In this document: piece by piece, positions 22,114-39,645 of the stretch | Position numbering within the stretch: the stretch's first letter is position 1 | Layout: every line of letters begins with the position of its first letter | NCBI GenBank assembly: GCA_039679525.1 | Contig: JBDKUU010000806.1 | Coordinates: forward strand, 1-41,669 | Direction: 5' to 3' | Source of the DNA: Phycisphaerales bacterium | GTDB lineage: Bacteria; Planctomycetota; Phycisphaerae; Sedimentisphaerales; Anaerobacaceae | DNA: 41,669 nt | Translations under genes and position numbers: made by a program | The notes under the pieces: model-generated | What the model was told of the DNA's origin: nothing | What the model saw: only the letters and a program-made list of their open reading frames with translations | Database searches by the model: none

Positions 22114-23733
22114 CTATGCACTCGCCGACGCTGAGGGGCTGGCGCTGACTGATTGGCTCGGCGTGCCTTCCGACGCGGACGCCGACGGACTGACGCTCGC
22201 CGATTGGCTCTGGCTCGTGGATGGGCTCGTGCTGAAGGACCCGCTCACCGGCTCGCCCGGCTCGACGGCGGGGCCCGGACCCGTCCCCTCCGTGATATAG
22301 CCGGCGACGAAGACGTCCTCGATGCACTCGATCACGCATTCCCCGCTCGTCAGGGATCCGCGGCTGATCTTCGTGACGCGGACCGCGAGGGCTGAGACCT
22401 TCAGGTCCGAGCAGGTGATCGTGATCGGGTCGCCAACTTTCAGGTGCGCCATGGTCCGCAGTGCCCGCAACACGAACGTGCGGGGCATCGCACTGACCGC
22501 CTGCTGCTCGCGGGCCGCGATCTCGACGGCCAGGTCCGGCAGGCAGATGAAATTCGAGTAGTCGATCTCCTGGACGACGGGCAGCCCCCCCTGCTTGGCG
22601 ATCATGGCCAGGTCCGGTCCGTAGGCGGGCCGCCGCTCCAGCGTCACCCGGTCCCAGTACCAGACCTTCGTGCGGGTTGGCAGCCGGCCGAGCGACGAGC
22701 AGGCCATGGACTCGACCCAGAAGTCACTCTCGTCGAACGATCCGACTGAAACATCCGATTCGCGGATCAGGGCAATCTCGAATTTGCCCGTCTCGGAATC
22801 GACGTAGAGCTTGCCCCGGATGATCTCCTCGATCTGCTCGACCATCTTCTCGATATCGTCGGCGTCCCAATCCCACACGCACGAAAGGCCGATCCCCTCC
22901 GTGTAGCACGTATCCGCGGCCGTCGTGAAGCTGTCCCCGATCAGGGCGGCGGACTTGCCCAGCCCGATCACGGAGCTGGTGAGCAGCTCGTACAGGATAT
23001 GGATCGCGTTCAGGTCCCCATCCGAGCCCACAGGGGCCTTCGCGATGTACCACATCGCCGTGCCGTCCGAAAGCTGGTTCACCCGCTTGCAGAGGAAGGA
23101 CCAGGGCTTCAGATACGCCTGGGTCCCGATGTACGTGAGCTTCAGGACGATGGATGTGAAGCCGCGGGAGGGCGGCTCCGTGGCGCCGAGCAGTGCGGAA
23201 AGATAGGAGTCGAGCGTCTGGGCCGATCCGCCGTAGAGGATGTGCAGGGCACCCCCGTAGTGGTAGATGCCTCCCTCTCGCTTGCCGCCCCCCCAGCACC
23301 ATTGGCATTCCGCCTGAAACTCGACGCTCGCCGCCGCGTCCCCCGCCATCTCCGTCGCATCGTTCAGCACGGGCCAGACGCAGGTGTCCGCCACCCAGAT
23401 CTGCTTGACCCCGTCGATATTGGCCTGGCAGATCCCCATCTGCAGTGAGATATAGTACAGCCAGGCCGCGTAGTCGCTGTGCGTCCAGTAGTAGCTGTTC
23501 AATTCCAGCAGCGGCGTGACCGCGTTGGGACTCTGGACCCGGCGAGTCCCGAAGACGACCGGATAGGGCCGGCCCTCCTCGGCCGTGGGCAGCTCGAAGG
23601 CATCCTTGCCCGCCGGTTTCGGCTTCGATGCCTTCTGGCGGAAGGCGTAGCTCACCGCGTAGGAGATGGCCACGGCGATGGCGATTTTGATCGCTGCAGA
23701 GATGATGAACGGGATGAATGCCCACGCCAACAT
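22114..23733 (-). CDS. Tail tip / host-specificity (gpJ/GTA g15-like N-terminal) protein with a Ser-rich C-terminal tag
   Basis: The ATG at 23733 shares one nt with the upstream stop (TGATG). [27 protein letters not shown]...EGRPYPVVFGTRRV... The protein is last in the tail module. The C-terminus is ...[25 protein letters not shown]. Confidence 0.6.
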   Translation of the reverse strand: MLAWAFIPFIISAAIKIAIAVAISYAVSYAFRQKASKPKPAGKDAFELPTAEEGRPYPVVFGTRRVQSPNAVTPLLELNSYYWTHSDYAAWLYYISLQMGICQANIDGVKQIWVADTCVWPVLNDATEMAGDAAASVEFQAECQWCWGGGKREGGIYHYGGALHILYGGSAQTLDSYLSALLGATEPPSRGFTSIVLKLTYIGTQAYLKPWSFLCKRVNQLSDGTAMWYIAKAPVGSDGDLNAIHILYELLTSSVIGLGKSAALIGDSFTTAADTCYTEGIGLSCVWDWDADDIEKMVEQIEEIIRGKLYVDSETGKFEIALIRESDVSVGSFDESDFWVESMACSSLGRLPTRTKVWYWDRVTLERRPAYGPDLAMIAKQGGLPVVQEIDYSNFICLPDLAVEIAAREQQAVSAMPRTFVLRALRTMAHLKVGDPITITCSDLKVSALAVRVTKISRGSLTSGECVIECIEDVFVAGYITEGTGPGPAVEPGEPVSGSFSTSPSTSQSQSASVSPSASASEGTPSQSVSASPSASASA

Positions 23734-26498
23734 CAGAGCACCCCCCACTGACTCCAGACGTCTTCGTCCGGGATATTTTTCTGGCCGCGGAAATTGGCCG
23801 AGTTCGCGAACTTCGAGGCACAGGTGGCCGCCAGGTGATCGCAGCCGGGCCAGATCGTGAAGGGCCGGCCTGTCACGTCCTCCGGCAGCGTCGGCCAGAT
23901 CGTCACCGTATCGCCGGACTGGGCGACGACCGTGCGGCGGTGACCTTTGACGAGGATGTCCCCGCCGAGCCACCAATCGGCGCCCTTGAGTCCGAAGGTC
24001 GCACTCGTCAGGACCCGGCCGGAAACCGATTCGATCGCCCCCTCGAAGGCATACTCGTCCCGGTCCACGCCGCACAGATCGCTGTAGAGGTCCACGCCGC
24101 ACAGACGGCTGTAGCAGTTCACCAGGCCGCTTCGGGCGGTCGCAGCGGAGGAAGGATCGATCGTGATCTCGGCGCAGCGGCCGTCCCCCTTGCGGGAGGT
24201 CTGCTTGAATGCGACTTGGATCACATCGCCCCGATAGATCGCACGGACCTGGTCCCCGTGCCCCCGATAGCGAACGTAGTGGACGATGGCCTCCGGCGGG
24301 TCCTGGAGCCAGCGGAGGGCCAGGGCGTTATTCCAGTTCACCTTGACGACGGTCTGATCCTTCAGGACCGTCGCCCCCTCCTGGATCTCCCCACCGAGGC
24401 AATAGCAGGCGGTGAACGTGTTGCCGCCGTAATCCACGTCGGCCGGTGCGTCCGCGTAGCGGTAATAGACCGCCGTCTCACCGATCTGGAACTCGTGCAG
24501 CTCGTACGGTTCCCCCGTATCGAGCGAGGCCTCGTACTCGTCATAGTCGGAGGACTCCGAAGGGGAGGCCGAAGGGGTTGCGGAGACCGAGGCGGAGAGG
24601 CTCGCGCTCGGCGAGCCGCTGAGGCTGGAGGATGGGGTCCCTTCACTGGCGGAAGCGGATGGTGATACACTGACCGATTGCGATGGACTTGCAGATGCGG
24701 TGCCCTCGCTCGACGAAGCGGAGGGTGAACCGCTCATACTGGCACTGGGCGAGGCCGAAAGACTACCGCTCGGTGAGCCGGATGCGGACGCAGAGGGACT
24801 GGCACTAATCGATTGTGATGGACTATGCGACAGGCTGGCACTCGGCGAGATGGAGACCGAGGCTGATGGAGTCGCGGATGCTGAGCCGCTCGGACTGGCG
24901 CTGACCGACTGGCTCGGCGTCCCCTCCGACGCCGACGCCGATGGGCTGGCGCTCGCCGACTGGCTCGGGCTCGTGGCTGGGGCTGACGCCGAGGGGCTGG
25001 CACTGGCCGATTGTGATGGGCTGTGCGAGAGGCTGGCACTCGGCGATACGGAGATCGAGGCTGATGGAGTCGCTGATGGCGAACCGCTCAGACTGGCGCT
25101 CATCGACTGGCTCGGCGTGCCCTCCGACGCGGACGCCGATGGGCTGGAGCTTTTCGAACCCGAGGGGCTTTGGCTGACCGACTGGCTCGGCGTGCCCTCC
25201 GAGGCGGATGCCGATGGGCTCGCACTTTTCGAACCCGAGGGGCTCTGACTGACCGACTGGCTCGGAGTCCCCTCCGACGCGGATGCTGATGGGCTCGCGC
25301 TTTTCGAACCCGATGGACTCTGGCTGACCGACTGGCTCGGCGTCCCTTCCGACGCCGAGGCCGATGGGCTGGCGCTGACCGAACCCGATGGACTCTGGCT
25401 GGCCGATTGGCTCGGCGTCCCTTCCGACGCCGAGGCCGATGGGGAGGCACTTTTCGAACCGCTCGGGCTGGCACTGATCGACTGGCTGGGACTGCTCGCC
25501 ACGCCGGAGGCGGAAGGCGATGCGGATTTCGAAGCGGACTTGCTCGCCGAAGGACTCGGACTCGGGGAAGAGGATATGTACTCGTCGTATCCCACGTCCC
25601 ACCCGGCGCCTGCAGGCCGGGCGTTGCCGTCCACATCTTCATCCGGGTCCATATCCGCCGATGCGTTGGTTCCGGCATCCTTCAAGGTTGACGAGTCCCC
25701 GATGTGCAGGTCCTCGCTGCCGGCCGTGACGTTCGTGAAGTAGGCCCCGCTGCTGGTCGAGAAGGCGGCCGTGGAAGTGGAAAGCGACCCATCCTCGCTG
25801 TAGCAGTTCGTCAGGGTCACCGCGCCGGCGTCCGCGTGCTTGGCGTAGTCCGCCGTCCCAGTGCCGCCGGCATAGCAGTTCTTGGCCGTCAGGGTCGAAT
25901 AGGCCCCAACGTAGATGCCGTAGACCGACTGATTCGCGAAACTGCAATTCAGGACGACCGTGCCGGTTTTTGAATTGGCGACGTTGACACCACGGGTTCC
26001 ACCAAAACAACCACAGTTCTGAATGAGCCAGTTGTTCCCGCCGACACTGATGCAGTAGGCGCCCGGCTGGCGGATCAGGCATCGCGTGACTCGAATCGAA
26101 GCATTGCTACTGACGATTCCGTTGCCGTCCGTCACATGGGCATAGACCTGCAAGCCCTCCAGGCGGGTGTAGGCCGGCATGGCGTTCAGGGTCGTCGCGT
26201 AGGCCGTGGTCCGGCCGATCCGGTACTTGCTCGTAGACCAGACGCCCGCGTGATTGTCCGCCGACACGATCCGCAGATAGTTCGAGGCCGAGGCATTGGT
26301 CCAGCCGCTGAAATCCACTGCGGTCGTGTCCGCCGTCGCTCCGCGGCAATAAACCGTGTGCTGCTTGCCGCCGTCCGCCGAGAGATCGCCGTCTTCCGCC
26401 GCACTCCAGGCCGATAGCGTCTTGTAGGCGGTCGCCCAGGAGGTCCCGTCTCCGCCCACCGCGATATCCGTATCGACATATCTGACGACTTCCGCCAT
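23733..26498 (-). CDS. Chimeric tail hub/fibre: beta-helix domain, ~340-aa Ser/Ala/Pro linker, then a DUF2163/BR0599 (GTA g13-like) domain
   Basis: The N-terminus has periodic xNC rungs ([10 protein letters not shown]...VLNCSFAN...AKNCYAGG...LTNCYSEDG). The middle carries [25 protein letters not shown] repeats. The C-terminus has [27 protein letters not shown]. Confidence 0.7.
24552..25574. repeat. Coding tandem repeats with triplet-periodic (AGC/GCC/CCG) units of about 66-75 bp
   Basis: Multiple near-identical copies encode [17 protein letters not shown]. Confidence 0.85.
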
Positions 26499-26499
26499 C

Positions 26500-28344
26500 T
26501 CAGAACACCCTCACGAGATCCACCTCGCAGGTCATTCGGCCCCGCCCCTGCCAATCGAATTGCACCTCCCCGCTCGCCAGTCGGCAGCGATCGACCCAGG
26601 ACAGGTATCCGCCGGCGGCCAGGCTCACGCCCAAGGCCGCATCAATGGTCACGAACTCCTCACTCGCCGAGACCGTCGCGATATCAGTCACCTTCCGCAC
26701 GATCAGCGATTCGCCGGACCTGTAGGCCACATAGGTCCGGATCGCGTCGCCGTCCAGATTGAGGGCGAAGCGTGCGGATTTGACGTACAACTCCACGGCG
26801 TCCGAAGTGGCGGCTCGGGTCAGCGAGAGGTCCCTGCGGAAGGTCGGGACGAGGAACGCCTTCTGCGGTCCACAGACGTAGTGCATGAACTGCCTCAGAG
26901 ACCAGCATTGGGCGGGAGTGCGGCAGACCCAGGAGTGGCCCTGGCCGGTCTCGTTATTGTCGCCCACCCGGACCACCTCGAAGGGCCCGGCCCCGGAATC
27001 CAATACCGCAACGTCCGGATCGTGATCGATCTTGCCCGTCCGGCCGGACCAGACAGCGGGGTCCGTGAGCACGGGCAGACTGTCGTATTCCAACGCGGCC
27101 GCGTAGCCTGTCACGCGGACCGGATCGACGATCCCGATCCGGACTTCCAGCAGGGCGCCGCCCCCCAGCCGCTCCTCGGCCGAGGCGGCCGTGATCCGAC
27201 CCTGGCGCAGCGGCATGATCCAGTCGGAGGCGGTCCAGGCCTTCGCCGTTACGATACTCAGACCCAGCGAATCATCCGCTACGGTCGCGATCCGCACGAT
27301 CTCGTGATCCGCCAGGTTCCAGAGCACGGCGTAGCCATCATCGCGGTAATCGGCGTATCGGGTATCGACCGGGATCGACGATGAGCCGGCCGGCAACACC
27401 GCCCCGAGCTGAGCAGACTCCGGCCAGATGGGCACCGGCCAGGTCCTCCGCAGCCAGCGGTTCACCGCCGACTCCATCGCCGCCACCTCGTCCTCGCCGA
27501 CGGCGAGGAGCTTCGTCTGATACGATTGGTTGGGGACCTTGCGCCGCAGTGCGATTCGCTGCTCCGTTCGATCCCCGCTCTGCAGGACGTTCGCCGGGAA
27601 GTGCAGGACCTCCGTCACCGGCCACGTCCACCGCTGCCAGGCGGGGGCCAAGGTCAGGCAGGTCATCACGGGGGTGAACTCGGCGAAGGCCGTGAAATGC
27701 CCGGACCATTCGAGCAACGGGTCATCGCCGGCGTCATACGTGATCGTACCCTGCTCCGTCAGGTCGTCGCCGACCAGGGCATCGGGGCCATCGACCAGCT
27801 TCCAGTAGCCGAGCAGGTGCGCCAATTGGACGTCCTGAATCGGCGTCGTCTTTGCGGCCAGGGACTCGATCTCGGCGTCGCTCAGCACCACGTCCCATAT
27901 CGCGACATGGGCGATCTTGCCGTCGAAGGGCTGCGGCGAGGAAGGGTTGAACAGGCTGCGGCCCACAACGATAAAGGTCATGGACTCCGTACCGGAGCCG
28001 GCCGTATAGGAATGTGTGATTTCGACCCCGTTGAGCCACAGCGCGCGGTCCACATTGTCGGCGGCAGTCAGGATGAAGTGGTTCCATTCATCGAGCGAGT
28101 ACTCCTCGGGATAGGAAGTGAACCCGGTTGCGGAGCCGAGATGATCGTAGATGTCGGCGAGATCACTAGCCACCAAGGAGAGTTTGAGAGCATAATCTGG
28201 ATCGTCGCGGCCGACTTCTACTACACCGCAATAATTGCCGCCCACAGTTTTCGGTTTCGCCCAAGCCATGATCGTGACAGGCCGGCCGGAGGTCAAGGCC
28301 AATTGTAGGTAGTTGTTCTTGTTGTCGTTGAACACTACAGACAT
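26500..28344 (-). CDS. LamG (Laminin_G_3)-domain fusion to a distal tail protein (GTA g12-like position)
   Basis: The ATG at 28344 gives [38 protein letters not shown] is the LamG_3 hallmark. Assignment of the rest is by position after the tape measure. Confidence 0.55.
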
Positions 28345-28348
28345 CGAA

Positions 28349-28753: not shown

Positions 28754-28786
28754 TGGATCTCCAAGCCATGCGGGACCTTACTGACC

Positions 28787-28850: not shown

Positions 28851-30839
28851 TCATTGGTTCCTCGACGCATGGTATTGCCACGCCTGCTCGCCGCTGCGGC
28901 TCTGGAACCACTCCTGCGGGCTCTGCCGCTTGTCGAGGATCGTCACGGCCGTCGTCTGGCGCCGCGTGGCGATCCGCTCCAGGAGCGTCACCATGCGGCC
29001 CATCAGGCGGCCCTCCGTTGCGACGCCGCTTCGGCTCGTGATCCGCTCCCCCCGCTGGCCGATGAACCGGAACTCGTCCGGCCGCAGGCCATCGTGCAGG
29101 CGGGGGGCCCCGATCCAGTTCGCCGGCGAGTCCCGGCGCGAGGCGAACGCCGTCTGGCCAATCACGCCGCCGCTGTGCCCGACGTTGGCCTCGCCGAAGT
29201 TGGGCAGCATCGCGCTCATCGCCTGCATCACGGCCCACTTGACCACCATGTGGGCGATCTCCTGAGCCACCTGCTTGAGCGACTCCTTCAGGTCCTCACC
29301 GTAGACCGCAGCATCCGCGATCGATTCGGCCACGCCGTCGAACCCCTTCTTCACCACGTCTGACGCCAAATCCCCGACCGTCTGCATCTGATCCTTGATC
29401 TCGGCGAAGGCACCTTTGATCCCATCGCCGAGCGACTGATAATGCTCCTGCAATTGCCGGACCCGCTTGATCTGCTCGCCGATCGCGTCCTTCTCCTCCG
29501 GCGTGAGTTTGAGGCCCTGTCGCTTCGTCTCGTTCACGATCTCCTGGAGCCGGGCCTGGTCCTTCAGCCCGGCCCGCTGCAATTCGAGGATGTCCCCCTC
29601 CTCCTTCAGTTGTTGCAGGTACTCGGAGGCTGCCGCACGGGACCGCAGCTCGTTGAGCATCTCCATGGCCGAATTGTATTTGACCATCGCCCCTTGGGCC
29701 TCTTTCGTCCCCTTGCCGTAGGTCTCCTCCACCGTTGCGAGGTACTTCACCGTCTCCGCCGCCTGGAGATTGCCGGCATTCGCCTCCCTCTGGATCGCGA
29801 TCTGCTCCTTGATCTGCTCGTTGAGCCGGACGATCTGCTCCCGCTGCGCGGCCGTGGCCCCGGCCGCCGCCGATGCGCCGTCCCCGCCTTTTATTTTGGC
29901 CTGGACTTGGCCGCTCCGCTCGTAGGCTGCCGTCAACTTCGCGAGATATGCCGGATCTTCCCGCCAGTCATTCCGAGTCGCTGTGTATCCGTTCGGCATG
30001 CGAGCCTGAGCCTGCTCCTGCAGCCGCTGCTCGTAGGCCTGGAATAGGGACGCCTGCTGCTGCTCGCTCAAGGATTGAGTCTTGTACCAGGTAGTCTGCC
30101 CCCCCTGCCCGCCCTCCAACTCCTGGCGGATGAACCGCATCGCCCTCTTCAACGCCGGTGTCAGCGGCTTGGCCATTGATTCCTTGGTCTGTTCCCATTC
30201 GTTGCGGAGCTGGGCAATCGCCCCTCCCAGCGTCTCTGTATCCGCGCGGGCCTTGTCGAAATTCGCACGGCCGGCCGCCATCACCTGGAGGAACTGCTGC
30301 TGCTTGCTCTTCGTTCGATCAACGACGATCCCCATCTCCTTGAGCTGGCCCGTCTCCCCCTGGCGGGCCAGGGCAACCGTTCGCATCGTCTGGGACAGGT
30401 CCTTTTTGTACGCCGAGGCCAAGCCGACCGCCGCCTCCGTCATGGCGCCGATCTCCGGTACGGACGCCCCCATCGTCAAGGCCAGTGCCTGCTGCTGCTT
30501 GATCGCGTTACGGCTGTAGACCGTGAGGTCCTCCATGCCGTCCGCCTGCCGGCGGAGCATCTCGACGTTCTGCTCGCTGTATTGACCGCGGATCCGCAGG
30601 GCCGCGATCATGCCGCGATCCGCGGACTCGGCCTCGATCCCGGCGGCCGTGACGCTCTTGATAGCGGAGACCAGACCGCGAGCGCTCAGATAGGCCCCGG
30701 CCAGACCGGCTACCGTACGCTGTAGGGCGAGGGACCCCGACATCATACCGCGCATCGTCTGACTTGCGGACTTGCCACCCCGGTCGAAGGCGGTCGAGTC
30801 CATCGTGAGACGGGCAACGAGATTCTGGATCAGGCTCAT
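28851..30839 (-). CDS. Tape measure protein
   Basis: A 662-aa Ala/Gln/Glu/Leu-rich helical protein, placed immediately after the G/GT chaperone. Its ATG overlaps the stop of the frameshift product. Confidence 0.85.
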   Translation of the reverse strand: MSLIQNLVARLTMDSTAFDRGGKSASQTMRGMMSGSLALQRTVAGLAGAYLSARGLVSAIKSVTAAGIEAESADRGMIAALRIRGQYSEQNVEMLRRQADGMEDLTVYSRNAIKQQQALALTMGASVPEIGAMTEAAVGLASAYKKDLSQTMRTVALARQGETGQLKEMGIVVDRTKSKQQQFLQVMAAGRANFDKARADTETLGGAIAQLRNEWEQTKESMAKPLTPALKRAMRFIRQELEGGQGGQTTWYKTQSLSEQQQASLFQAYEQRLQEQAQARMPNGYTATRNDWREDPAYLAKLTAAYERSGQVQAKIKGGDGASAAAGATAAQREQIVRLNEQIKEQIAIQREANAGNLQAAETVKYLATVEETYGKGTKEAQGAMVKYNSAMEMLNELRSRAAASEYLQQLKEEGDILELQRAGLKDQARLQEIVNETKRQGLKLTPEEKDAIGEQIKRVRQLQEHYQSLGDGIKGAFAEIKDQMQTVGDLASDVVKKGFDGVAESIADAAVYGEDLKESLKQVAQEIAHMVVKWAVMQAMSAMLPNFGEANVGHSGGVIGQTAFASRRDSPANWIGAPRLHDGLRPDEFRFIGQRGERITSRSGVATEGRLMGRMVTLLERIATRRQTTAVTILDKRQSPQEWFQSRSGEQAWQYHASRNQ

Positions 30840-31755
30840 TCCGTCACACCCAACCGCAATTTGATCTGGTCGAACATCTGCTGCTCTTCTTCTTCCGTAC
30901 GCTCGGCCGGCTCGTCACCCTCCGGCGGCTGACTGACGCCCACCATGCCGCCGATCGGCTCGATGCCGGCGTAGATCTCGATCTCACGCTGCTGCCTGTA
31001 GGAAAGGACCGCCAGCAGCCGATCCGGATGCGCGTAGCCCTGGTCCAGGGCTAATCGCCACCAGAATCGACGCCGGAAGTCCCCACGGAGTTTTTTTCAA
31101 ACGCATCGGCCGACTGTTTCGTCGCGAGGTTCACCTCGACCGCCGCCCGGTACACCCGCAGCAGGGCCGCCGGGCTCTTGGACCCGAGGGCCTCGATCTG
31201 CTCGTCCGTGAAGGCCCGCTGCCGCGTCTTGGGGTCCAGGATGCAGGCGGCGCACCAGCGGACCATGACGGCCGTGTTCTCCTCGCTGGAATACTCCTTC
31301 TCAGATTCCGTCGCGTGCAGCCCGCGGAGGCCACGGATCACGTTCTCGATCACCTTTGGGTCGATCCCATGCTTGGTCATCTGCTCGGACAGCAGCGTCG
31401 AGAGCCGGGTCCACGTCTCGGGCGAGGCATGCTTGAACTCCTCCACAGCCGTCACTGTCGCCGCCGCCGTGCCCTGCGACTCGGCATCGTCCGTTGGGCT
31501 CGCCGGCTCATTTTCCGTTGGCGCATCGTCACAAGTCACGATGTCCTCCGTCGCCGAATCGGTGGCCTGGCTCTCGGATTGGCCTGACGGCTTCGGCTTA
31601 CGGCCGAGGGAATCAATCCAGTCGTCCAGCCGGGCACGGTCCAGGGCGCCCATCGAGCCGACGAGAACCTTGGCGCCCTGGCCCCATTCGGGAACGGGAA
31701 CCTTGCGGACCTGCTTATCCTCGGCCGCGAGGATCTGTTCTGCGTTGAGAAGCAT
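30836..31755 (-). CDS. Tail assembly chaperone GT-type fusion produced by a -1 frameshift
   Basis: After the slip at A_AAA_AAC, the -1 frame stays open for about 84 codons (KKLRGDFRRRFWWRLALDQGYAHPDRLLAVLSYRQQREIEIYAGIEPIGG...QIKLRLGVTE*) and stops in ATGA with the tape-measure start. Confidence 0.7.
31051..31755 (-). CDS. Tail assembly chaperone (G-type, zero frame)
   Basis: Sits between the major tail and tape measure genes. It has an acidic middle, and SD AAAGGAG lies upstream. Confidence 0.7.
   Translation of the reverse strand: MLLNAEQILAAEDKQVRKVPVPEWGQGAKVLVGSMGALDRARLDDWIDSLGRKPKPSGQSESQATDSATEDIVTCDDAPTENEPASPTDDAESQGTAAATVTAVEEFKHASPETWTRLSTLLSEQMTKHGIDPKVIENVIRGLRGLHATESEKEYSSEENTAVMVRWCAACILDPKTRQRAFTDEQIEALGSKSPAALLRVYRAAVEVNLATKQSADAFEKNSVGTSGVDSGGD
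31090..31096 (-). promoter_or_regulatory. -1 programmed ribosomal frameshift slippery heptamer A_AAA_AAC
   Basis: Minus strand reads GCG TTT GAA AAA AAC TCC. The plus strand shows a T7 run at 31091-31097. Confidence 0.7.
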
Positions 31756-31851: not shown

Positions 31852-32352
31852 TTACGCGCTCGCGCTGGAACTCGGGCTGGCGCTGGCGCTCGTGCTGGTG
31901 CTGATCGAACTGGACTCCGTGCCGCCGCCCTCGTGCGCGAAGCTCTTCTTGCCCAGCGTCTTGAACGTCACCGTCGCCATCTTCGCGTCCCGCGGCGTCC
32001 CGAAGCCCGGCCAGGAGAGCGTCAGGATCATCGCCTGCACCGTGATCGAGCTGGTCGTCCCGGCGCGGTTCTTGTACGTCACAACCAGATTGCCCCGCAC
32101 CTTCGCCCGCCACTTGTTGTGCAGGGCGTGGTAATTGGCGTTCTGGGCCCCATTGTAGATGAACTGGAACGATGGGGAGCCCTCATTGAACGCCCCTTCG
32201 AGGAAGTCGGCCGTCTCGTCGGCGCTGTCGCAGGTCAGGATGTCCTGGCCGTCCAGCTCCGAAGACACCTCGGGGAATCCGAGGACCTCCCCGATCGTGA
32301 CGCCGTCGAACACGAACGTCGTGCCGAACCCTTTACTCGCTGCCGTAGTCAT
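31852..32352 (-). CDS. Major tail (tube) protein, TP901-1/GTA g9-like, with a Ser-rich C-terminal extension
   Basis: The motif FGTTFVFDGVTIGEVLGFPEVSSELDGQDILTCDS and its position support the call. The tail is EGGGTESSSISTSTSASASPSSSASA. Confidence 0.75.
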   Translation of the reverse strand: MTTAASKGFGTTFVFDGVTIGEVLGFPEVSSELDGQDILTCDSADETADFLEGAFNEGSPSFQFIYNGAQNANYHALHNKWRAKVRGNLVVTYKNRAGTTSSITVQAMILTLSWPGFGTPRDAKMATVTFKTLGKKSFAHEGGGTESSSISTSTSASASPSSSASA

Positions 32353-32394: not shown

Positions 32395-32814
32395 TCACAC
32401 ATAGCTGATTTCCCAATCCTGCCGCTTCCCGTAGCGGGTCAGGGTCTCATTGTCGGCGGGGATACTGATCGCGTCCCCTTCATCGTCGATACTGCAATAC
32501 TGCACTGTCACGCCCCCGTGCGAGCCGCGGGCACCCGCCGCCTGCATCGCGGTCCGGACCGCCTCCGCCAGCGTCCGGGCCCCGTCCGGATCATCGTCCC
32601 AACAGGTGATCTGCACCCGGTCCGTCCGCAGATCGCCGTCTCCCTCGCACGTGAACTCCACATCGCTCGTGATCTGCTGATAGACCACGGCGGGCATGGC
32701 CTTGCCCTGGGGGATGCCGATGGGATAGATCCGGGGACTGGCCGCACCGCCCACCAGGGCCGTCACGCCGGCGGCGGACTCCAGGATGTGGTAAATTGCG
32801 GCCTCAAGGGACAT
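32395..32814 (-). CDS. DUF3168-like tail terminator / tail completion protein
   Basis: LEAAIYHILESAAGVTALVGGAASPRIYPIGIPQGKAMPAVVY is the family-typical N-terminus. Confidence 0.65.
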   Translation of the reverse strand: MSLEAAIYHILESAAGVTALVGGAASPRIYPIGIPQGKAMPAVVYQQITSDVEFTCEGDGDLRTDRVQITCWDDDPDGARTLAEAVRTAMQAAGARGSHGGVTVQYCSIDDEGDAISIPADNETLTRYGKRQDWEISYV

Positions 32815-32998
32815 CGCCGTACCCCCACATTTGCAGGAAATTCCTGACGGTTTGTGCCGCCGACTCGGCCACCTGGCCCGGTGTTTGCCCGTTCAGATCG
32901 TCGTCGTAGACCGTACAATCCTCTGCTGCGTCGAATCGATGCGGATGCCGATTCGAACGCTTTGGACCGACCTCGTCGATCGTGATCGTGATCTTCAT
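32804..32998 (-). CDS. Small structural-module protein
   Basis: A 64-aa ORF with an ATGA overlap to the upstream gene and an 11-nt overlap downstream. Confidence 0.45.
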   Translation of the reverse strand: MKITITIDEVGPKRSNRHPHRFDAAEDCTVYDDDLNGQTPGQVAESAAQTVRNFLQMWGYGDVP

Positions 32999-33567
32999 CC
33001 GTTTCTCCCCTTGATCGCTTCCCGCAGTAGACCCACACGAAGTTCCGTCACGAGTTTCTGGATCACGAGTCCCTTCGACCGCTCGGCCGCCTGGCGCATG
33101 AAGGGCCGGGCGGCACTTTCCTTGTCCGCGCCATGGCCATATTCGATGGCCGCTGGAATGTAAGTCACTCCACGCGTAGCCCCGATTTTCGTCGGATAGA
33201 ACCCCCGCGGCGTCGTAACGTTGAATTCGATCTCCGTATGCGCCCCCCGTGCTGTGTGCGTGAATTCCGGAACGTTCCTTCTCAGTTGAACGTGCAGGGA
33301 ATAACTCCCGGCAATCTGGCGATAGGGAGAAGCGATCACGATGTTCCTGGCGATCAACTCCGCCATGCGAATGTCATCTTTTCCTTTCGCGAAAAGCACC
33401 TTCTCCGATCTGGGAAGCGCCCGGGCATTGGCGATGGCGGCTTTGAGCATGATCTTCTGCGAATCGCGGACTGCCGAACGGATCACATTTTTCGCCAAAC
33501 GGCTGCCCAGTGAATCAAGGTTCCTTCGCAACTCTTCGGCCCCATCGAGATAAAAGCCAATTCTCAT
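32995..33567 (-). CDS. HK97 gp10-family head-tail joining protein
   Basis: ATG at 33567 (MRIGFYLDGAEEL). YIPAAIEYGHG...ARPFMRQAAE is the family motif. Confidence 0.7.
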   Translation of the reverse strand: MRIGFYLDGAEELRRNLDSLGSRLAKNVIRSAVRDSQKIMLKAAIANARALPRSEKVLFAKGKDDIRMAELIARNIVIASPYRQIAGSYSLHVQLRRNVPEFTHTARGAHTEIEFNVTTPRGFYPTKIGATRGVTYIPAAIEYGHGADKESAARPFMRQAAERSKGLVIQKLVTELRVGLLREAIKGRNG

Positions 33568-33597
33568 TCTCTGTGTCCTCTGTGTCTCCGTGGTGAA
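33568..33597. repeat. Mini-repeat of the CTCTGTG family, abutting the start codon
   Basis: TCTCTGTGTCCTCTGTGTCTCCGTGGTGAA. Confidence 0.75.
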
Positions 33598-33601
33598 TCG
33601 A

Positions 33602-34003
33602 TCACGCCGAACTGCTCGCTGAAGGCGAGGCCGATACACTCGTGCTGGCCGATGGGCTCGGGCTCGAAGCCGGGCCGGCCGCCAGGACCTCCGTGCAGAG
33701 CATCCGCGTCTCGACGTTCAATTCATCCACGTTCCGAACGTCCTTGATATCGAAGGTCCTCGTACCCCAGACGATCCGGTGACCCGGCTGCACGTCCACC
33801 CCGTGGCGGATCGTGATCTCGTGCGTCAGGACGGTCGACGCCTGCTGGGCCGCGATCCGCTCGTTGCCGCTGAGCGTTCGGAACCTGGACCAGACGGAGA
33901 CGTACGTGGACCAGGTCTGCGTCGCGTGACCGCTCGCCGAGCGGGTCTCCACGTACGATTGCAGCGAGATCAGATTCCGCAGTTCGCCGGCCCTCAGTCT
34001 CAT
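33602..34003 (-). CDS. Head closure / head-tail adaptor (Phage_H_T_join, SPP1 gp16-like) with a Ser-rich C-terminal tag
   Basis: The ATG at 34003 is in an ATGA overlap. LRNLISLQ...WSTYVSVWSRFRTLSGNE...THEITIRH...FDIKDVRNVDE. The tail is [26 protein letters not shown]. Confidence 0.7.
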   Translation of the reverse strand: MRLRAGELRNLISLQSYVETRSASGHATQTWSTYVSVWSRFRTLSGNERIAAQQASTVLTHEITIRHGVDVQPGHRIVWGTRTFDIKDVRNVDELNVETRMLCTEVLAAGPASSPSPSASTSVSASPSASSSA

Positions 34004-34641
34004 ACGCCCCCCATCCTGTCCAGCCCGAGCAGGGTCTTGGCACCATATGGGATCTCCGCCAGACTCAGATCGGTCACTACCTCGCGGTTCGCATACCAAT
34101 GGGCCACGATCAGCAAGATCGCCGTGCGGATATACCCCGGCACATCGTCCTCGTCGCTGCCGTACCCGGCGGTGTAGGTAACGATGATGCCGTTGATATC
34201 GCCCCGGATCGACGGCCAGTCGCAATCGTAGGCCGGGACGATCCGGCCAGGCTGCTTGTCCACGTCCACGTCGTACTGGTCCGCCGCCAGTGTCTGGAGC
34301 ACGCCGGATTCGTCGATGTACTGAATGCTCGTCACGGCGATCAGCGGGCACCAGCGGGGCCGGATTGCGGAAGGCCAGGAATCGAAGTAGTCCACGCAGG
34401 TCTGCGTGAGGTACTTGCGGCCCTGGTAGACCTGTGCCCATTCTGTGGCGGCGTCGATATAGGAATCGATCAGGGCATCCTCATTCGTGTTCGTCACCCG
34501 CAGGCGCAACTTCGCCTCGGCCAGGGTGACCACCTGCTCGGCGTCGCGTTCCACACTGGGGGAGGCGGACTCTGTCGCCGACGCGGAGCTGGAGGTGCTG
34601 CTGCTGATCGACTGGCTCGGACTGCTCGATGGCGTTCCCAT
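34000..34641 (-). CDS. gp6-like head-tail connector (QLRG/phiE125 gp8-type) with a Ser-rich N-terminal tag
   Basis: The N-terminus is [29 protein letters not shown]. This is followed by TLAEAKLRLRVTNTNEDALIDSYIDAATEWAQ. Confidence 0.7.
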   Translation of the reverse strand: MGTPSSSPSQSISSSTSSSASATESASPSVERDAEQVVTLAEAKLRLRVTNTNEDALIDSYIDAATEWAQVYQGRKYLTQTCVDYFDSWPSAIRPRWCPLIAVTSIQYIDESGVLQTLAADQYDVDVDKQPGRIVPAYDCDWPSIRGDINGIIVTYTAGYGSDEDDVPGYIRTAILLIVAHWYANREVVTDLSLAEIPYGAKTLLGLDRMGGV

Positions 34642-34642
34642 A

Positions 34643-34924
34643 TCAGATCCCCGTCAATACCTTCAAGATCCATCCGCCCAACAAAGAGCCCCCCGTCGTC
34701 ACAACCAGAAACACCGCCGCCACGCCGGCCAGGAACCAGCGGGACTCCAGCAGCTTGCGGCCGTGGGGACAGGTAGCCTGATGATTTTCAATCATCATCT
34801 GAACCGCCTGACGCTGGGATTCAGCCATCTTCTCCAGTGCCTCGGATTGCGATTCCGCAAACCGCTCTCCGATTTCGAAGGCCAGCAGCTTGATCGTGTC
34901 CCGGTCCTGTTCCGTCAGCGCCAT
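34643..34924 (-). CDS. Small C-terminally membrane-anchored protein
   Basis: A 93-aa ORF with a helical N-terminus and the TM segment WFLAGVAAVFLVVTTGGSLLGGWIL. Confidence 0.45.
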   Translation of the reverse strand: MALTEQDRDTIKLLAFEIGERFAESQSEALEKMAESQRQAVQMMIENHQATCPHGRKLLESRWFLAGVAAVFLVVTTGGSLLGGWILKVLTGI

Positions 34925-35614
34925 CTATCCCGCCTTTCCACCGATGAAATACGTCGTCATCACGTCCTCGACCGTTCCCCAAGGGTCCAGCCGTTTGACC
35001 AGTCGGCCGCTGTGCCGCTTGCACGGGGCGTAGTTGCCCCCGTGATTGACCAGGTCCAGGATGCCGGGGCCCGGAGCCGCGAGCATCTCGTATTCGATCT
35101 TCGCAATGCCGAGCGTCTCAGAGCCCTTGCCCGGCTCAAACGCATCGTGAAAATCCTCGTCGAAAAAGCAGCGAACGAGCTTGGCGACCGCGTCCATCAG
35201 CAGGACCGCCCGCTCGGCGATCACAAGCTGCATGGACCGGCCGCCCCGGTCCACGGAGAACCGGCGGCAATCCATCAGGGCCCGATGGCGATTCTGATCG
35301 AAGACGACCTCCCCTTTCACCGGACGCAGAAAGAAATGCTCCGGTGGGTAGAGGACATCGTGCTCGCACAACGCGACGAACTCGGTCTCGCACGCCAGGC
35401 ACCCGGCGGCGATCTGGCGGAGGATGGAGCGATAGGACCGGCCGATGTCCCCGAGGCAGACGTTGTGCCCGAAGTCGATCGGCCGCTGCGAGATACTGAC
35501 GATCGGAATCCCCCCGGCCTTCCCGGCACTCGCGATGAGATGGGCCCTCACTGCCGCAGCGAACCGGCTCGGAAGACTGTTGTCCGTATAATAGAGGATC
35601 GTCAGATCGGTCAT
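34925..35614 (-). CDS. Putative GT-A-like glycosyltransferase (weak call)
   Basis: ILYYTDNSL...VALCEHDVLYPPEHF pattern. It lies adjacent to the large GT ORF with a 4-nt overlap. Confidence 0.35.
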   Translation of the reverse strand: MTDLTILYYTDNSLPSRFAAAVRAHLIASAGKAGGIPIVSISQRPIDFGHNVCLGDIGRSYRSILRQIAAGCLACETEFVALCEHDVLYPPEHFFLRPVKGEVVFDQNRHRALMDCRRFSVDRGGRSMQLVIAERAVLLMDAVAKLVRCFFDEDFHDAFEPGKGSETLGIAKIEYEMLAAPGPGILDLVNHGGNYAPCKRHSGRLVKRLDPWGTVEDVMTTYFIGGKAG

Positions 35615-38600
35615 GGGGCCCTCTGGATGAAGACGATGTTGTGGTACCAGTGGATCTCGCGAACGTCGCGAGGGGCATAGATCCTGTTTTCCAATCCAAT
35701 GTGGAGACAGCGAAATTCGTCATCCTCCAGTTCATTGTCCTCCACCTCGGGATCATCTTGATCGAACGATCGGTGGATGTCCTCGATCACGTACCAGCCG
35801 AAGGGCCGAACGCTCGGCCAGAGCCAGTCGAACAACCGCCGCTGGTCCTCGGGCGCGTGCGAGGCGTCGTCCACGATCAGATCGTAGGGCCCCGCGGCGA
35901 TGAGCTTCTGGACGTCGTCGAGCCTCGTCTCGTCCCCGACGATGACCTGGGTATTCGGCAGGTCACCCGCGAACTTCTTCCACCGATCCGGATCGCAGTC
36001 GAAGCCGATGACATGTGTCCGCTCGGGGAAATATGCTCGCCAGATGGCCAGGGAGGAACCGTGCGCCAGGCCGCACTCCAGGACCCGTCGGGCACGCTTG
36101 CGGATCGCGGACAGGTGCCTGTCGTAGTGCACGTGGTAGTTATGGACCCAGTGCTTGTCCGTCGCGTTCCCGCGGTGTACGACGTACTGCTGCTCCATCA
36201 ACTTCTGGATCGGGCCCGCCTCGGGCGGCGCCATCCGGTGCAGATGGTATTGTGGTGAGAGGATCATCGCACTGCGTGCATCGCCGAGCAGCCGGCCGAT
36301 GGCCCGCTTGCCCTGAATAGTCCCCAGACGCTGGAGGATCACGAGTCGGCGATACCCCTTCCACAGGATCAACCGGCCCTCGTGCTCGTAGAATTCCAGC
36401 GGGCTCTTGAGACCGTTGTCGCGGATGTCGAGGACGAGCCGTGCGGCCTTTTGCATCTTGCCCTTCACGGTCCGCAGCTCCTGCCGCGTCGGGATCCGAA
36501 CGCTGCCCCGGCGGATGTGACTGATGAGGTACTCGCGATAGCGACCCTCATAGTCCGGCTTGCCGGCCAGGACGGAATCGACGAACTCGCCGAACGCCGG
36601 CCAGAAGATGTCCAGCCGGAAGGACTTCGCCGGTTCGCTGATCCGGTGCCGGCCCACCCAAAGATCCTCCACACTCACGCGGACCGCCTTGCAGGCGTTG
36701 TGATGGTGAGGGGCCTGGATCGCGGGGCCGTAGTCGGCCGCAGGCCACCCCGGCGGATGAAACCGCTCCAGCAGCCAGGCGAAACTGTATTTCTGGAACC
36801 GCCATTTGTCCCCGAGCCAGAGGTCGTGACTATGCTCGATGCTCCTGGGCTTGACCGTCGCGCCCATCGCGTAGGGGGCCTTGCCCCGGTTCCAATGGGC
36901 GTACCAGGTCCGCTTATTCTCCAGGAGGCGACCGCCCGAGAGCCATACTTTACAGGCGAGTTCCGCCCCTTCCTGGCCGAAATGGCCGTGGCCCTCGTCC
37001 CAGCCGCCCCAATAGGTCCACAGGTCCCGCTCGATCAGGAAGCAGCTGCCCGAGCAGGTCATCGTCTCGGAGACCTCTTCGTCCTTGTGGGCCTCGGCCC
37101 ATTCGGGCCAGGCCATCGAGCGAAGGCCGATCCCATCCTCCGTGACGTGCGTCAGACGCCGGCAGTCGGTCTTACTGTGTTCCCGCCGCTGCCAGGAGAC
37201 CGTATCCAGATCGTACCGGCTGCCCACGACGGCGCCGCCCGGTTCCCATGCCCGGATCAATTCGGCATCCATGTCATCCGCGACGGCGCAGTGGGCGTCG
37301 AGCTTTAAGATGAATTGGCCCTTGGCTTCCTTCAGCAGGCGATTCAGCGTGGGACGCATGCCTAACTTCGGACCGGGCAAGACGCGAACTCGCTCGTCAT
37401 CGAATCGCGGGACCGGCTGATCCTCACCATCGAGGCCAATGAGGATCTCGAAGTCATTATACAGATGGGCCAAGAGGTCTTTGACTGTAGCCTCTAGGAA
37501 CTGCTCATTGCGGGCCGGGATCAGAACGGAGATCGTCGGAGCCTCGGGGACAAGGGGGGCGAGTTTCTTGAGGCCAGTCTTGACGGCCTCCACTTGCCGC
37601 TCTGCACGCTCTATGCCTTCTTCAAATGCCTTCTGTTCTGCAGATAGAAAGGACCCCATTGACCTCGTTGACCTTGTTAACCTTTTCGACTTGACCGCTG
37701 GAGCCTGGATTACCCGCCTGGCCTTTGCATCGACCCTGTCGATATCGTTTTCCGTCATCCTTGGCTCATTCTTTCTCTGTGTCCTCTGTGGCTCTGTGGT
37801 GATTTTCCTCTTTGGCCAGGTGGGGACCGGTGCGAATCTGTCGGCGATCCACTCGAGCGGCCGTGTCTGCAGCGGCCAGCGACCACCGGTCCATAGATCG
37901 ATCGAGTACTGGCGTGCCTTCTCCTGGTCGCTGCCGTGGATCTTGTACGGGAAGCTCTCCCCGTCCCCGCAGCGAAACAGGTGTGCAAACCACGTATTGC
38001 GGTTCACCACATGCCGGCCGCCGGAGAGCCACGCCTTGCACGCCATTTCCACACCCATCTGACCCCAGGACCCATGCCCTTCGTCCAGCCCTCCAAGCTC
38101 CCAGAATCGATCCCAGTGCATGAACCAGCAGGCGCCCTGGCCCGTCATTACGTCCGCGATCTCGCCCTGCCGCTTGGCCCAGGCCTTGAATTGGCGATAC
38201 TCGTCTTCGTATTCGCGACCACCCCTGCGGAAGTCCCTTGCCCCACACTGCCCGCAGTTTGCATCCCCGGCGTCCGGATCCTTCGCCGCTCCACACTGAT
38301 TGCAGATGTGCGTTCCCTGACCCCAGTACTGGACCCGCAGGGGCCGCTCCTTCGCCTCGGGAGACCGGAAGAACATCCAATCCGTTTTTCGCTTCCAGTT
38401 CGGCTCAAAGACGATGTCGTACTCGTAGTCCGTGACGCCGCATGTCGGGCACGGCCGGTGACTCCCGCGATTATAGAACCGGCCCTTGCACTTGCGGCAG
38501 ATGAGGTCGTGGGCGTGCAGATTGTACATCGTCGGGATGACGGTCCAGTCGTACTCGCAGTCCCGCATGAGCTTGACGTCGAAGCCGTCCTCCAGCATCG

Positions 38601-38856
38601 AGTGGCCGTCCGTCTTCAAGATAAACTTCGCCGTCGAGAGCCGGGCGGCCTCATTGACGCTCTGCCGCTGACCCATCGGCTCGGCGTGGCGGATCACGCG
38701 AACACCCGGTAGATCGGGCACGACCGGCCCGGACTCCTGGCCGTCGATCACGACGATGATCTCCGTCTCACCGCGAATGGCGTTGTGGATCGATTCCACC
38801 GTGTGGGCCAGGTACGCCTCCGCCCTGGCCGGGATGATGACGCTAACATCGGGCAT
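35611..38856 (-). CDS. Multidomain glycosyltransferase-glycosyltransferase-methyltransferase (2 x DxH GT-A plus a class-I SAM MTase)
   Basis: GT-A 1 (aa 1-345): VSVIIPARAE, KTDGHS, WGQMGVEMACKAWLSGG..WFAH, with CxxC x4 inserts. GT-A 2 (aa 441-705): ISVLIPARNE, KLDAHC, FGQEGAELACKVWLSGG..WYAH. MTase (aa ~890-1081): VLECGLAHGSS, GFDCDP, DLIVDDASH, GWYVIED. Confidence 0.75.
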   Translation of the reverse strand: MPDVSVIIPARAEAYLAHTVESIHNAIRGETEIIVVIDGQESGPVVPDLPGVRVIRHAEPMGQRQSVNEAARLSTAKFILKTDGHSMLEDGFDVKLMRDCEYDWTVIPTMYNLHAHDLICRKCKGRFYNRGSHRPCPTCGVTDYEYDIVFEPNWKRKTDWMFFRSPEAKERPLRVQYWGQGTHICNQCGAAKDPDAGDANCGQCGARDFRRGGREYEDEYRQFKAWAKRQGEIADVMTGQGACWFMHWDRFWELGGLDEGHGSWGQMGVEMACKAWLSGGRHVVNRNTWFAHLFRCGDGESFPYKIHGSDQEKARQYSIDLWTGGRWPLQTRPLEWIADRFAPVPTWPKRKITTEPQRTQRKNEPRMTENDIDRVDAKARRVIQAPAVKSKRLTRSTRSMGSFLSAEQKAFEEGIERAERQVEAVKTGLKKLAPLVPEAPTISVLIPARNEQFLEATVKDLLAHLYNDFEILIGLDGEDQPVPRFDDERVRVLPGPKLGMRPTLNRLLKEAKGQFILKLDAHCAVADDMDAELIRAWEPGGAVVGSRYDLDTVSWQRREHSKTDCRRLTHVTEDGIGLRSMAWPEWAEAHKDEEVSETMTCSGSCFLIERDLWTYWGGWDEGHGHFGQEGAELACKVWLSGGRLLENKRTWYAHWNRGKAPYAMGATVKPRSIEHSHDLWLGDKWRFQKYSFAWLLERFHPPGWPAADYGPAIQAPHHHNACKAVRVSVEDLWVGRHRISEPAKSFRLDIFWPAFGEFVDSVLAGKPDYEGRYREYLISHIRRGSVRIPTRQELRTVKGKMQKAARLVLDIRDNGLKSPLEFYEHEGRLILWKGYRRLVILQRLGTIQGKRAIGRLLGDARSAMILSPQYHLHRMAPPEAGPIQKLMEQQYVVHRGNATDKHWVHNYHVHYDRHLSAIRKRARRVLECGLAHGSSLAIWRAYFPERTHVIGFDCDPDRWKKFAGDLPNTQVIVGDETRLDDVQKLIAAGPYDLIVDDASHAPEDQRRLFDWLWPSVRPFGWYVIEDIHRSFDQDDPEVEDNELEDDEFRCLHIGLENRIYAPRDVREIHWYHNIVFIQRAP
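37658..37802. repeat. Intergenic-type repeat module (TTGACC family plus CTCTGTG family) embedded in frame in the 1081-aa ORF
   Basis: ATTGACCTCGTTGACCTTGTTAACCTTTTCGACTTGACC (37658-37696) and TCTCTGTGTCCTCTGTGGCTCTGTGGTGA (37774-37802). Confidence 0.8.
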
Positions 38857-39055: not shown

Positions 39056-39174
39056 AACAACCCTTTCGATCCATCTGGTTGACCGGCCGGGCTACGTCCC
39101 AGGCCGGCGTCAACGGAGGCCGGCAGTGATACCCCATCGCCGCCAGCAGATCCGACATGTTCATCCGCCGCCCC

Positions 39175-39645
39175 TTACGCCGAGGCGCTCGCGCTCGGGG
39201 ACGCCGATACGCTCGAACTGGCGGAGGCGGAAATGCTCGACGATGGACTCTCGGATCTCGATTCAGCCTCGGTCCAGCCCTCTACGATCACACTGACCTT
39301 CCCGGCCCCGCTCGCGTCCATACACAGGGAATTGTTCTCGTTCAGCCGCATGGGGGTCTCGCCGAAGTCGATAGGGCAGAAGGTCCCCGCCGCCCCGCCG
39401 AGCGAACCGATCAAGGTCCGCAACAATGCACCGGAGTCCTTGCCTTCCCCGATCGTCACGGTGACCGCCGCAGTGATGGAGATCCACAATCGCTCGACGT
39501 GCAGGGCGAAGCCCACTCCCGGAGACGGCACGATCACCTCGCACCCGCTTGCGTCGTCGCTGGCCACGTTGAACCGCCACGCCGTCTTTCTCTGGGGGTC
39601 CGTGCTCCGCACGGCCTGCGCGATGGGAATGATTTCAACGGACAT
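39175..39645 (-). CDS. Beta-rich virion-associated protein (decoration-like?) with a Ser-rich C-terminal tag
   Basis: A 156-aa ORF with tail [29 protein letters not shown]. Confidence 0.45.
   Translation of the reverse strand: MSVEIIPIAQAVRSTDPQRKTAWRFNVASDDASGCEVIVPSPGVGFALHVERLWISITAAVTVTIGEGKDSGALLRTLIGSLGGAAGTFCPIDFGETPMRLNENNSLCMDASGAGKVSVIVEGWTEAESRSESPSSSISASASSSVSASPSASASA

Follow-up and report, generated by a model that had tools for sequence, protein, structure and literature searches.

We report that a phage late operon on contig JBDKUU010000806.1 of a Phycisphaerales bacterium assembly (GCA_039679525.1, positions 1 to 41,669, hereafter the window; 41.7 kb, ~62% GC) encodes virion proteins carrying long alternating-serine (Ser-X) arrays, together with a 1081-residue putative glycosyltransferase (GT), GT1081. 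The operon is of siphovirus type and lies on the minus strand; six of its virion genes contain strictly alternating Ser-X arrays, 18-342 amino acids (aa) long. We propose, at a probability of roughly 0.7 as judged from sequence, that these arrays are modular acceptor tags for a phage-encoded, cytoplasmic protein O-glycosylation system. Since the repeats co-occur with an enzyme resembling those that initiate mucin glycosylation in animals, the phage particle most likely acquires a coat of sugars by a previously undescribed route. Literature searches returned no description of such a tag and enzyme system.

The arrays occupy the following positions, where the confidence score cited is the predicted local distance difference test (pLDDT).

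22117-22245, minus strand: C-terminal tag of the tail-tip protein, 43 aa, from translation and a six-frame scan
24549-25574, minus strand: internal block of the hub protein, 342 aa (residues 309-650 of 921), from translation and a six-frame scan
31855-31923, minus strand: C-terminal tag of the tail tube protein, 23 aa, from translation and a six-frame scan
33605-33682, minus strand: C-terminal tag of the head-completion protein, 26 aa, outside the PF05521 match
34549-34641, minus strand: N-terminal tag of the gp6-like connector, ~30 aa, outside the best PF05135 stretch
39178-39261, minus strand: C-terminal tag of p156, 28 aa, with pLDDT < 50 in the AlphaFold2 model

An earlier note on this DNA had described Ser-rich tags on these six proteins, and translation together with a six-frame scan found each of them where it had been placed, in frame and on the minus strand. 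The scan of the window revealed no further in-frame Ser-rich segment of at least 23 aa beyond the six genes. The tape measure, the chaperone, the gp10-like protein and the tail completion protein (the terminator of the note) were tag-free in the same scan, as had been claimed. The sequence had been called triplet-periodic; it is indeed periodic and Ser-rich, but its real period is the Ser-X dipeptide, or 6 nt. The pattern (S.){8,} was found 16 times in the window, every time within one of the six tagged genes, and not once in 200 mononucleotide shuffles of the window. When the residues of each tagged protein were shuffled, the pattern appeared in 0/2000 shuffles for five of the proteins and in 5/2000 for the hub. 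Since the arrays are missing from the shuffles of the window, a chance origin is excluded.

Within a single tag, the serine codons AGC, AGT and TCN are mixed. At the DNA level, a stretch of the hub block matches the tip tag at 87% identity over 87 nt and the gp6 tag shares one 25-nt match with the hub block, while the remaining pairs of window tags showed no DNA similarity. Because AGY and TCN codons are mixed and most tags lack DNA similarity, selection on the tags works at the protein level. The peptide found verbatim in both tip and hub is 20 aa long; a 22-aa motif that had been reported as common to two genes is present in the tip only. The spread by recombination that had been suggested is borne out for the tip and hub pair only; the other tags are old conserved features of their families and were not transferred recently. 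In the tags, Thr occupies 3% of the X positions. The 342-aa array of the hub is interrupted seven times by EGTPS and contains tandem units of ~25 aa; it joins an N-terminal right-handed beta-helix domain to a C-terminal BR0599/phrog_778 domain. Long open reading frames (ORFs) also overlie this block in other frames or on the other strand (24547-25743, plus strand; 24823-25638, minus strand) and look gene-like, with a high GC content at third codon positions; these are by-products of the repeat. Gene callers mis-call the matching regions in relatives, for instance L001 3105-3437 and L004 6890-7588 on the minus strand.

The view that the tags are additions to otherwise ordinary proteins, and not folded domains, was borne out by domain matches, models and homologues. 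The PF05521 match covers residues 7-108 of the 133-aa head-completion protein and the tag lies beyond it; in the gp6-like connector the best PF05135 stretch begins at residue 39, after the N-terminal tag. AlphaFold2 models of p156 and of the tube protein had confident or moderate cores, the p156 core being confident, and pLDDT values < 50 in the tags (residues 131-156 of p156 and 143-166 of the tube protein). The tags are thus predicted to be disordered. Tag-free homologues exist: the tail tube protein of L015 (143 aa), 12 metagenome relatives of the tube protein, and the head-completion and adaptor proteins of L186. The L186 head-completion homologue ends ...KEALD without a tag, the connector homologue of this locus also has no N-terminal tag, and its tube protein bears a folded C-terminal extension in place of the tag.

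The 166-aa tail tube protein, which the note had called the major tail protein, had no Pfam or PHROG match; its identity is inferred from gene order and from a Foldseek search in which the best matches of the model were tail tube proteins, lambda gpV first, although this match is modest. Lambda gpV carries an outward-facing C-terminal domain and, since the tube model best matches gpV, this places the tag at the position of that domain. Foldseek matches of the p156 model were weak (template modelling scores of 0.36-0.47) and comprised jelly-roll coat proteins and the KHP40 cement protein. From its gene position and jelly-roll-like topology, p156 is a candidate head decoration or cement protein, which we offer as a suggestion and not as a finding.

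We then considered how well the tags are conserved. All 18 tail tube homologues in the protein database (33-95% identity) are tagged C-terminally; the length of the tag varies and most end in SASA. Likewise, 9/9 p156 homologues are tagged (~18 to 104 aa), head-completion homologues bear tags of 22-73 aa, and the N-terminal tag of the connector is kept in L001, L005 and L007. Tags stay at the same termini over 33-87% identity between tube homologues. Since homologues keep tags of varying length and sequence, the tag itself is ancient and maintained, while its length and sequence are free to drift. Scanning metagenomes for the tube family returned 15 tagged loci (34-87% identity, GC 0.55-0.65), 11 untagged loci of a sister clade (30-35% identity, GC 0.46-0.51) whose proteins end ...GKATFTDIPG, and one further untagged sequence of high GC. 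The corresponding scan with a head-completion alignment gave only 7 loci, too few for a 2x2 table. No isolated phage matched the window by megablast, and a GTDB scan with the tail tube alignment gave no match; identities of the tip protein to proteins of Xanthomonas and Pseudomonas siphophages do not exceed 34%.

Some relatives carry tags in other settings or of much greater size. In L197, a paralogue with the tail tube fold (L197:4444-5337) is encoded downstream of the tail-tip gene and has a tag of ~140 aa, while the tip tag of the same locus is 138 aa; here the tube fold seems to have been reused as a tagged accessory of the tail end. In the low-GC relatives L042 (14197-17919) and L038 (13160-18106), one ORF contains >700 tag residues and a 1649-aa protein contains 530, respectively, and L123 encodes 922 tag residues on an 8-kb contig. 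The sequences of these huge arrays suggest very long glycosylated fibres.

The tags occur together with the enzyme. Among tagged relatives with enough upstream DNA, homologues of GT1081 and of its neighbour p229 are present in 5/5 (the window, L001, L004, L005 and L009). In the last four, whose tube proteins are 37% to 86% identical, both lie between the capsid and connector genes. L015, a member of the untagged clade with 10 kb of sequence on each side, shows a contiguous series of terminase, portal, Mu-gpT-like capsid, neck and tail module, and no GT1081-like enzyme within those 10 kb on each side. L186, a distant relative by its connector and head-completion proteins, has neither tags nor the enzyme within its 7 kb. 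Tagged homologues from phages devoid of glycosyltransferases, which the earlier note had named as evidence against acceptor function, were thus not encountered among the loci with sufficient context.

Starting from the enzyme gave the same association. A scan with the enzyme alignment yielded 43 loci, namely 42 viral contigs (37-76% identity, GC 35-64%) and one metagenome-assembled genome of an FCB-group bacterium. Heterogeneous Ser-X arrays were present on the strand of the enzyme in 34/43 of these loci, reaching 458 aa uninterrupted and >700 residues in one ORF. Arrays were present in every locus that extends 5 kb or more to either side of the enzyme (15/15), and in all of the eight loci without arrays the contig ends within 2.8 kb downstream of the GT gene. 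Several of the 43 loci are duplicates or close relatives, and many of the contigs are short. A tagged ORF often ends 14-320 bp upstream of the enzyme gene. The (S.){8,} pattern occurs in the six window proteins, and 65 ORFs overall were tagged; among 57 tagged ORFs, those with any family match were matched only to virion families (head closure, adaptors, tail, baseplate, LamG and CBM5_12). Because the arrays occur at 35-64% GC, an effect of base composition is ruled out. A search of IMG/VR for serine arrays irrespective of the GT, with (TCNNNN)x10, returned mostly poly-Ser tracts, microsatellites and giant-virus contigs; L078, in which a GT1081 homologue is present, and L123 were the only hits that resembled genuine heterogeneous arrays.

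The enzyme and its partners form an island with the following parts.

35611-38856, minus strand: GT1081, 1081-aa enzyme with two Glycos_transf_2 domains and Methyltransf_24
GT1081 residues ~1-345: GT-A domain 1 (PF00535), with two inserted Cys4 zinc-ribbon-like motifs
GT1081 residues ~440-705: GT-A domain 2 (PF00535)
GT1081 residues ~900-1081: sugar O-methyltransferase-like domain (PF13578, 4e-8)
34925-35614, minus strand: p229, 229-aa protein, always adjoining GT1081
39900-41444, minus strand: 514-aa methyltransferase fusion, with an N-terminal class I S-adenosylmethionine methyltransferase (residues ~47-246; PF08003/PF13489, TIGR04290) and a C-terminal half

A profile of four GT1081 homologues was used to search the PDB sequences. 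The best glycosyltransferase matches of domain 2 were polypeptide N-acetylgalactosamine (GalNAc)-transferases, including T4, T10, T9, T12, T1, T2 and T7 (best E 7.5e-10), and domain 1 searched alone also matched polypeptide GalNAc-transferases best (best E 2.6e-6). The alignments to 2d7i, 2ffu and 5nqa run through the DxH and Gal/GalNAc-T motifs, the DxH motif of GT1081 aligning with 'fldsHc' of GalNAc-T2. The Gal/GalNAc-T motif reads WGQMGVE.ACKAWLSGG...WFAHLFR in domain 1 and FGQEGAE.ACKVWLSGG...WYAHWNR in domain 2; residues D83/H85/H292 and D520/H522/H654 are invariant in the four homologues. Also invariant are the two Cys4 motifs of domain 1, C120/C123/C136/C139 and C185/C188/C201/C204 (residues 120-139 and 185-204, within 37807-38856 on the minus strand), which sit between its DxH and Gal/GalNAc-T motifs. 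Their sequence and placement are such that they could form an acceptor-binding or oligomerisation module replacing the lectin domain of the animal enzymes. The C-terminal domain matched the sugar methyltransferases MycE (3ssm, E 3.2e-24) and TylE (8ia9, E 1.2e-19) over profile positions 866-1049. GT1081 is predicted to be cytoplasmic, since it has no membrane segment (maximum 19-residue hydropathy 0.96), and Pfam gave no ricin/CBM13 lectin match. Among 1.84 billion representatives, the domain 1 family comprises 935 clusters (50% identity) at E <=1e-3 and 219 at 1e-30; GT1081 is a small, specialised family. These enzyme relatives lend support to the proposal of the earlier note that the tags are mucin-like acceptors for a glycosyltransferase island, although the modification itself is inferred.

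The p229 gene is co-conserved in L001, L004, L005, L009 and L189. The L004 enzyme (L004:347-4123) contains a p229-homologous insert at residues 650-789 (31% identity, E 9e-20), and L004 also retains a free-standing p229 gene. Since a p229-like segment is fused within the L004 enzyme, p229 is functionally tied to GT1081. The 514-aa methyltransferase fusion belongs to the island in the window and in L005, where its homologue is 68% identical.

Three known systems come close in one respect each. In concept, the closest is the O-glycosylation of mycobacteriophage virions: phages Che8, Corndog and Myrna encode glycosyltransferases that O-glycosylate their own capsid and tail tube proteins, according to Freeman et al. 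2023 (Cell Host Microbe 31:1216) as cited in PMC12363180, PMC13445384 and PMC13313380. The window phage likewise encodes glycosyltransferases, in the form of two PF00535 domains, and the sequence of Che8 gp108 can be read as a GT-A domain followed by a methyltransferase-like domain, as in GT1081. However, the Che8 capsid and tail tube proteins end ...NKTGS and ...YSDGS, and only the window phage has long Ser-X arrays; the Che8 GT genes are at the far right end of the genome, whereas GT1081 lies within the structural operon; and, unlike in Che8, at least six proteins bear tags, and it is through a separate small protein that the capsid would be reached. Homology of the island enzymes to the Che8 glycosyltransferases was considered and rejected: BLASTP of gp108, gp109 and gp110 against all window proteins gave a best E of 0.1.

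The closest acceptors are those of the serine-rich repeat (SRR) adhesins, whose alternating-serine SRR domains are glycosylated intracellularly, ahead of delivery to their final location, by GtfA/GtfB, a pair with DUF1975, with O-linked N-acetylglucosamine that further glycosyltransferases extend, and which have a long signal peptide, export by the accessory Sec (aSec) system and an LPXTG anchor (PMC6973325). Long alternating-serine arrays of this kind are found in the six window proteins. Among the island proteins, searches of Pfam, NCBIfam and PDB returned no GtfA/GtfB (DUF1975) pair, only PF00535 GT-A domains and methyltransferases. GtfA and GtfB have the GT-B fold. The translations of the tagged window proteins, which are virion components, contain no signal peptide, aSec or LPXTG features.

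The closest solved structures are the GT27 polypeptide GalNAc-transferases of mucin-type glycosylation. GT1081 shares with them the DxH motif and the Gal/GalNAc-T motif, the latter (WGGE...W.CGG...H..R in GT27) including the His that is the third metal ligand, and the acceptors of GT27 are dense, disordered and Ser-/Pro-rich like the tags, although the tags are Ser-only. Unlike the GT27 enzymes, GT1081 has tandem catalytic domains with zinc-ribbon-like inserts in the first and a fused methyltransferase, and neither a ricin-type lectin domain nor a membrane anchor; the similarity is remote. As for the fused domain, MycE and TylE methylate hydroxyls of deoxysugars attached to macrolides, while the corresponding domain of GT1081 (~180 aligned residues) is fused to putatively protein-directed glycosyltransferases. 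Finally, the C-terminal domain of lambda gpV and T4 Hoc are folded Ig-like domains, whereas the tags are disordered serine arrays at the C-terminus of a tube fold and presumably function only after modification. We consider the window system to be a form of phage self-glycosylation that is a member of none of the Che8-type, SRR and GT27 families.

On these grounds we propose the following course of events. During late expression, the GT-A domains of GT1081 would place sugars from the nucleotide-sugar pool of the host on serines of the disordered tags; one GT-A domain would probably initiate on serine and the other extend the glycan. The fused MycE/TylE-like domain would O-methylate the sugars, and p229 and the 514-aa methyltransferase fusion may further build or trim the glycan. 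Since tags on termini or linkers are found in every exposed part of the particle, the virion would gain a mucin-like glycan brush over its head (via p156), neck, tail tube, hub and tip. The glycosylated 342-aa block of the hub would act as a stiff stalk that holds the beta-helix domain off the tail tip. The untagged tape measure is internal to the tube, and the untagged chaperone is not in the virion. Observed directly are the tags, their conservation and restriction to virion proteins, their co-occurrence with GT1081 and the relatives of this enzyme, while we infer the modification, the sugar, the order of the steps, the division of labour between the two GT domains and the benefit, which could lie in shielding, protease resistance, solubility or adhesion to a matrix.

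Several points weigh against this proposal. The case is built wholly on co-occurrence and homology. GT1081 resembles GalNAc-transferases to a moderate degree (E 1e-6 to 1e-9), GT-A domains of the GT2-like kind also make polysaccharides, and the lectin domain and membrane anchor of GT27 are missing from GT1081. The acceptors are almost purely Ser, and Thr is generally the preferred residue of animal GalNAc-transferases. The window ORFs that were scanned included no genes for nucleotide-sugar synthesis. Two of the partners are hard to place: for p229, as for the uncharacterised half of the 514-aa protein at its C-terminus, searches of Pfam, PHROGs, NCBIfam and PDB (sequence and profile) and an hhalign comparison with GT domain 1 gave no match. 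As regards the co-occurrence, the 15/15 array-bearing loci are not independent, since several are duplicates or close relatives; the absence of the GT from the untagged clade is fully documented for L015 only; and lineage and GT presence are confounded, because GC (46-51%) and the head module set the untagged clade apart as well.

The main rival holds that the arrays are unmodified flexible spacers or "entropic bristles" that serve solubility, domain spacing or weak adhesion to a matrix, and that the glycosyltransferase acts elsewhere, for example in modifying the host envelope against other phages or in modifying DNA. Low-complexity Ser/Pro/Ala linkers occur widely and work without modification, the hub block clearly works as an interdomain linker, and the substrate of GT1081 is deduced from context and homology. 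Nevertheless, we regard this explanation as unlikely. It leaves unexplained both the joint gain and loss of tags and enzyme and the fact that diverged lineages have the enzyme at one place, between the capsid and connector genes of the late structural operon. Envelope-modifying enzymes of the GtrB type have a membrane segment, unlike GT1081, and the 18-30-aa tails at the extreme C-terminus of proteins join nothing.

Modification of the tags by another chemistry or by host enzymes (Ser phosphorylation, phosphoglycosylation, or general O-glycosylation of Ser/Ala/Pro-rich regions by the host) is less probable still. It draws on the general O-linked systems of Neisseria and Burkholderia, which target Ser in Ala/Pro-rich low-complexity regions. 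The oligosaccharyltransferases of such systems are periplasmic, however, and their action on the tags is unlikely because tailed-phage particles assemble in the cytoplasm. A search of the island proteins in Pfam and NCBIfam found no kinase. Moreover, the phage supplies its own GT-A enzymes and a sugar-methyltransferase-like domain, and it is with this phage enzyme that the tags co-occur. Lastly, that the arrays are neutral, functionless by-products of replication slippage or base composition is strongly disfavoured: tag lengths do vary widely among close relatives and the hub block does have ~25-aa tandem units, but two unconnected Ser codon families are mixed, most tags lack DNA similarity, the same termini are kept over 33-87% identity at 35-64% GC, and the arrays are restricted to virion proteins and missing from shuffles.

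Returning to O-glycosylation of the tags, a broader version of this proposal can be put forward tentatively, at somewhat less than even odds. It is that uncultured tailed phages share a widespread and hitherto undescribed "glyco-tag" system, in which a tandem GalNAc-transferase-like enzyme would recognise portable alternating-serine tags (18 to >700 aa) grafted on many virion proteins and so produce a methylated mucin-like coat. The system would span siphovirus-like and baseplate-J-bearing (myovirus-like) lineages and hosts with a GC of 35% to 64%.

The remainder of the late operon, read from the end of the window inwards, is as follows.

39645-39887, minus strand: 80-aa protein
39175-39645, minus strand: p156, 156-aa beta-sandwich protein
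34643-34924, minus strand: 93-aa protein with one C-terminal membrane segment, between the p229 and connector genes
34000-34641, minus strand: gp6-like head-tail connector, 213 aa (PF05135)
33602-34003, minus strand: head-completion protein, 133 aa (PF05521)
32995-33567, minus strand: gp10-like protein
32395-32814, minus strand: tail completion protein
31852-32352, minus strand: tail tube protein, 166 aa, from gene order and a modest Foldseek match
31051-31755, minus strand: chaperone
28851-30839, minus strand: tape measure
26500-28344, minus strand: distal tail protein with LamG
23733-26498, minus strand: hub protein, 921 aa, with an N-terminal beta-helix domain and a C-terminal BR0599/phrog_778 hub domain
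22114-23733, minus strand: tail-tip protein, 539 aa, with an N-terminal part like lambda J and gene transfer agent g15, and PHROG 1101 over residues 16-481

The window stops short of the head genes. In the relative L001, the protease and HK97-type capsid genes are followed by two small genes, the p156 homologue and the GT1081 homologue, in this order. The 93-aa protein is 94% identical in L001. Because it has relatives (29% identity) in L015 and L016, of the untagged, GT-less clade, it probably stands outside the glycosylation system.

Other genes of the window bear on the life of the phage. The presence of a tyrosine integrase (16939-17976, minus strand; PF00589, 5e-22) suggests that the phage is temperate or a prophage. 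A 412-aa homologue of adenylosuccinate synthetase (8015-9253, minus strand; PF00709, 1e-39), whose best PDB matches are bacterial PurA proteins (E 2e-23), is encoded amid genes of early or replication type. Since PurA homologues of the PurZ type provide phages with the 2-aminoadenine of Z-genomes, the gene content suggests that this phage may modify its own DNA. A 341-aa DUF5131 protein of the phage Gp37/Gp68 family (10111-11136, minus strand; PF07505, 8e-48) is encoded ~860 bp away, separated from the PurA-like gene by one ORF, and the two may form part of one module for nucleotide or DNA modification. On the strand opposite to the tail genes, 0.85 kb past the tail-tip gene, lies a GDSL/SGNH hydrolase (20347-21267, plus strand; PF13472, 9e-25), adjoined by a 216-aa ORF (21422-22072, plus strand) without a match. 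Judging from its family, the hydrolase could be a carbohydrate esterase acting on glycans of the host surface or on the phage's own.

To our knowledge, self-glycosylation of the particle by phage-encoded enzymes has been documented experimentally only in mycobacteriophages, where glycosylation of the virion alters antibody recognition. The locus described here points to another solution, apparently one of much wider scope, in which a portable serine-repeat tag and a dedicated enzyme serve every exposed part of the virion. If this is true, a recurrent kind of "low-complexity junk" in phage structural genes would be explained. A compact cytoplasmic pair of tag and enzyme would offer an orthogonal tool for site-directed protein O-glycosylation in bacteria. 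The enzymes would also represent relatives, in prokaryotic viruses, of those that initiate animal mucin glycosylation, and as such would be useful in tracing the origin of the mucin-type O-glycosylation enzymes. For the phages themselves, a glycan coat of this kind would give a new view of the surfaces of environmental phages, with consequences for adsorption, aggregation, protease resistance and losses to grazing or to adsorption on particles.

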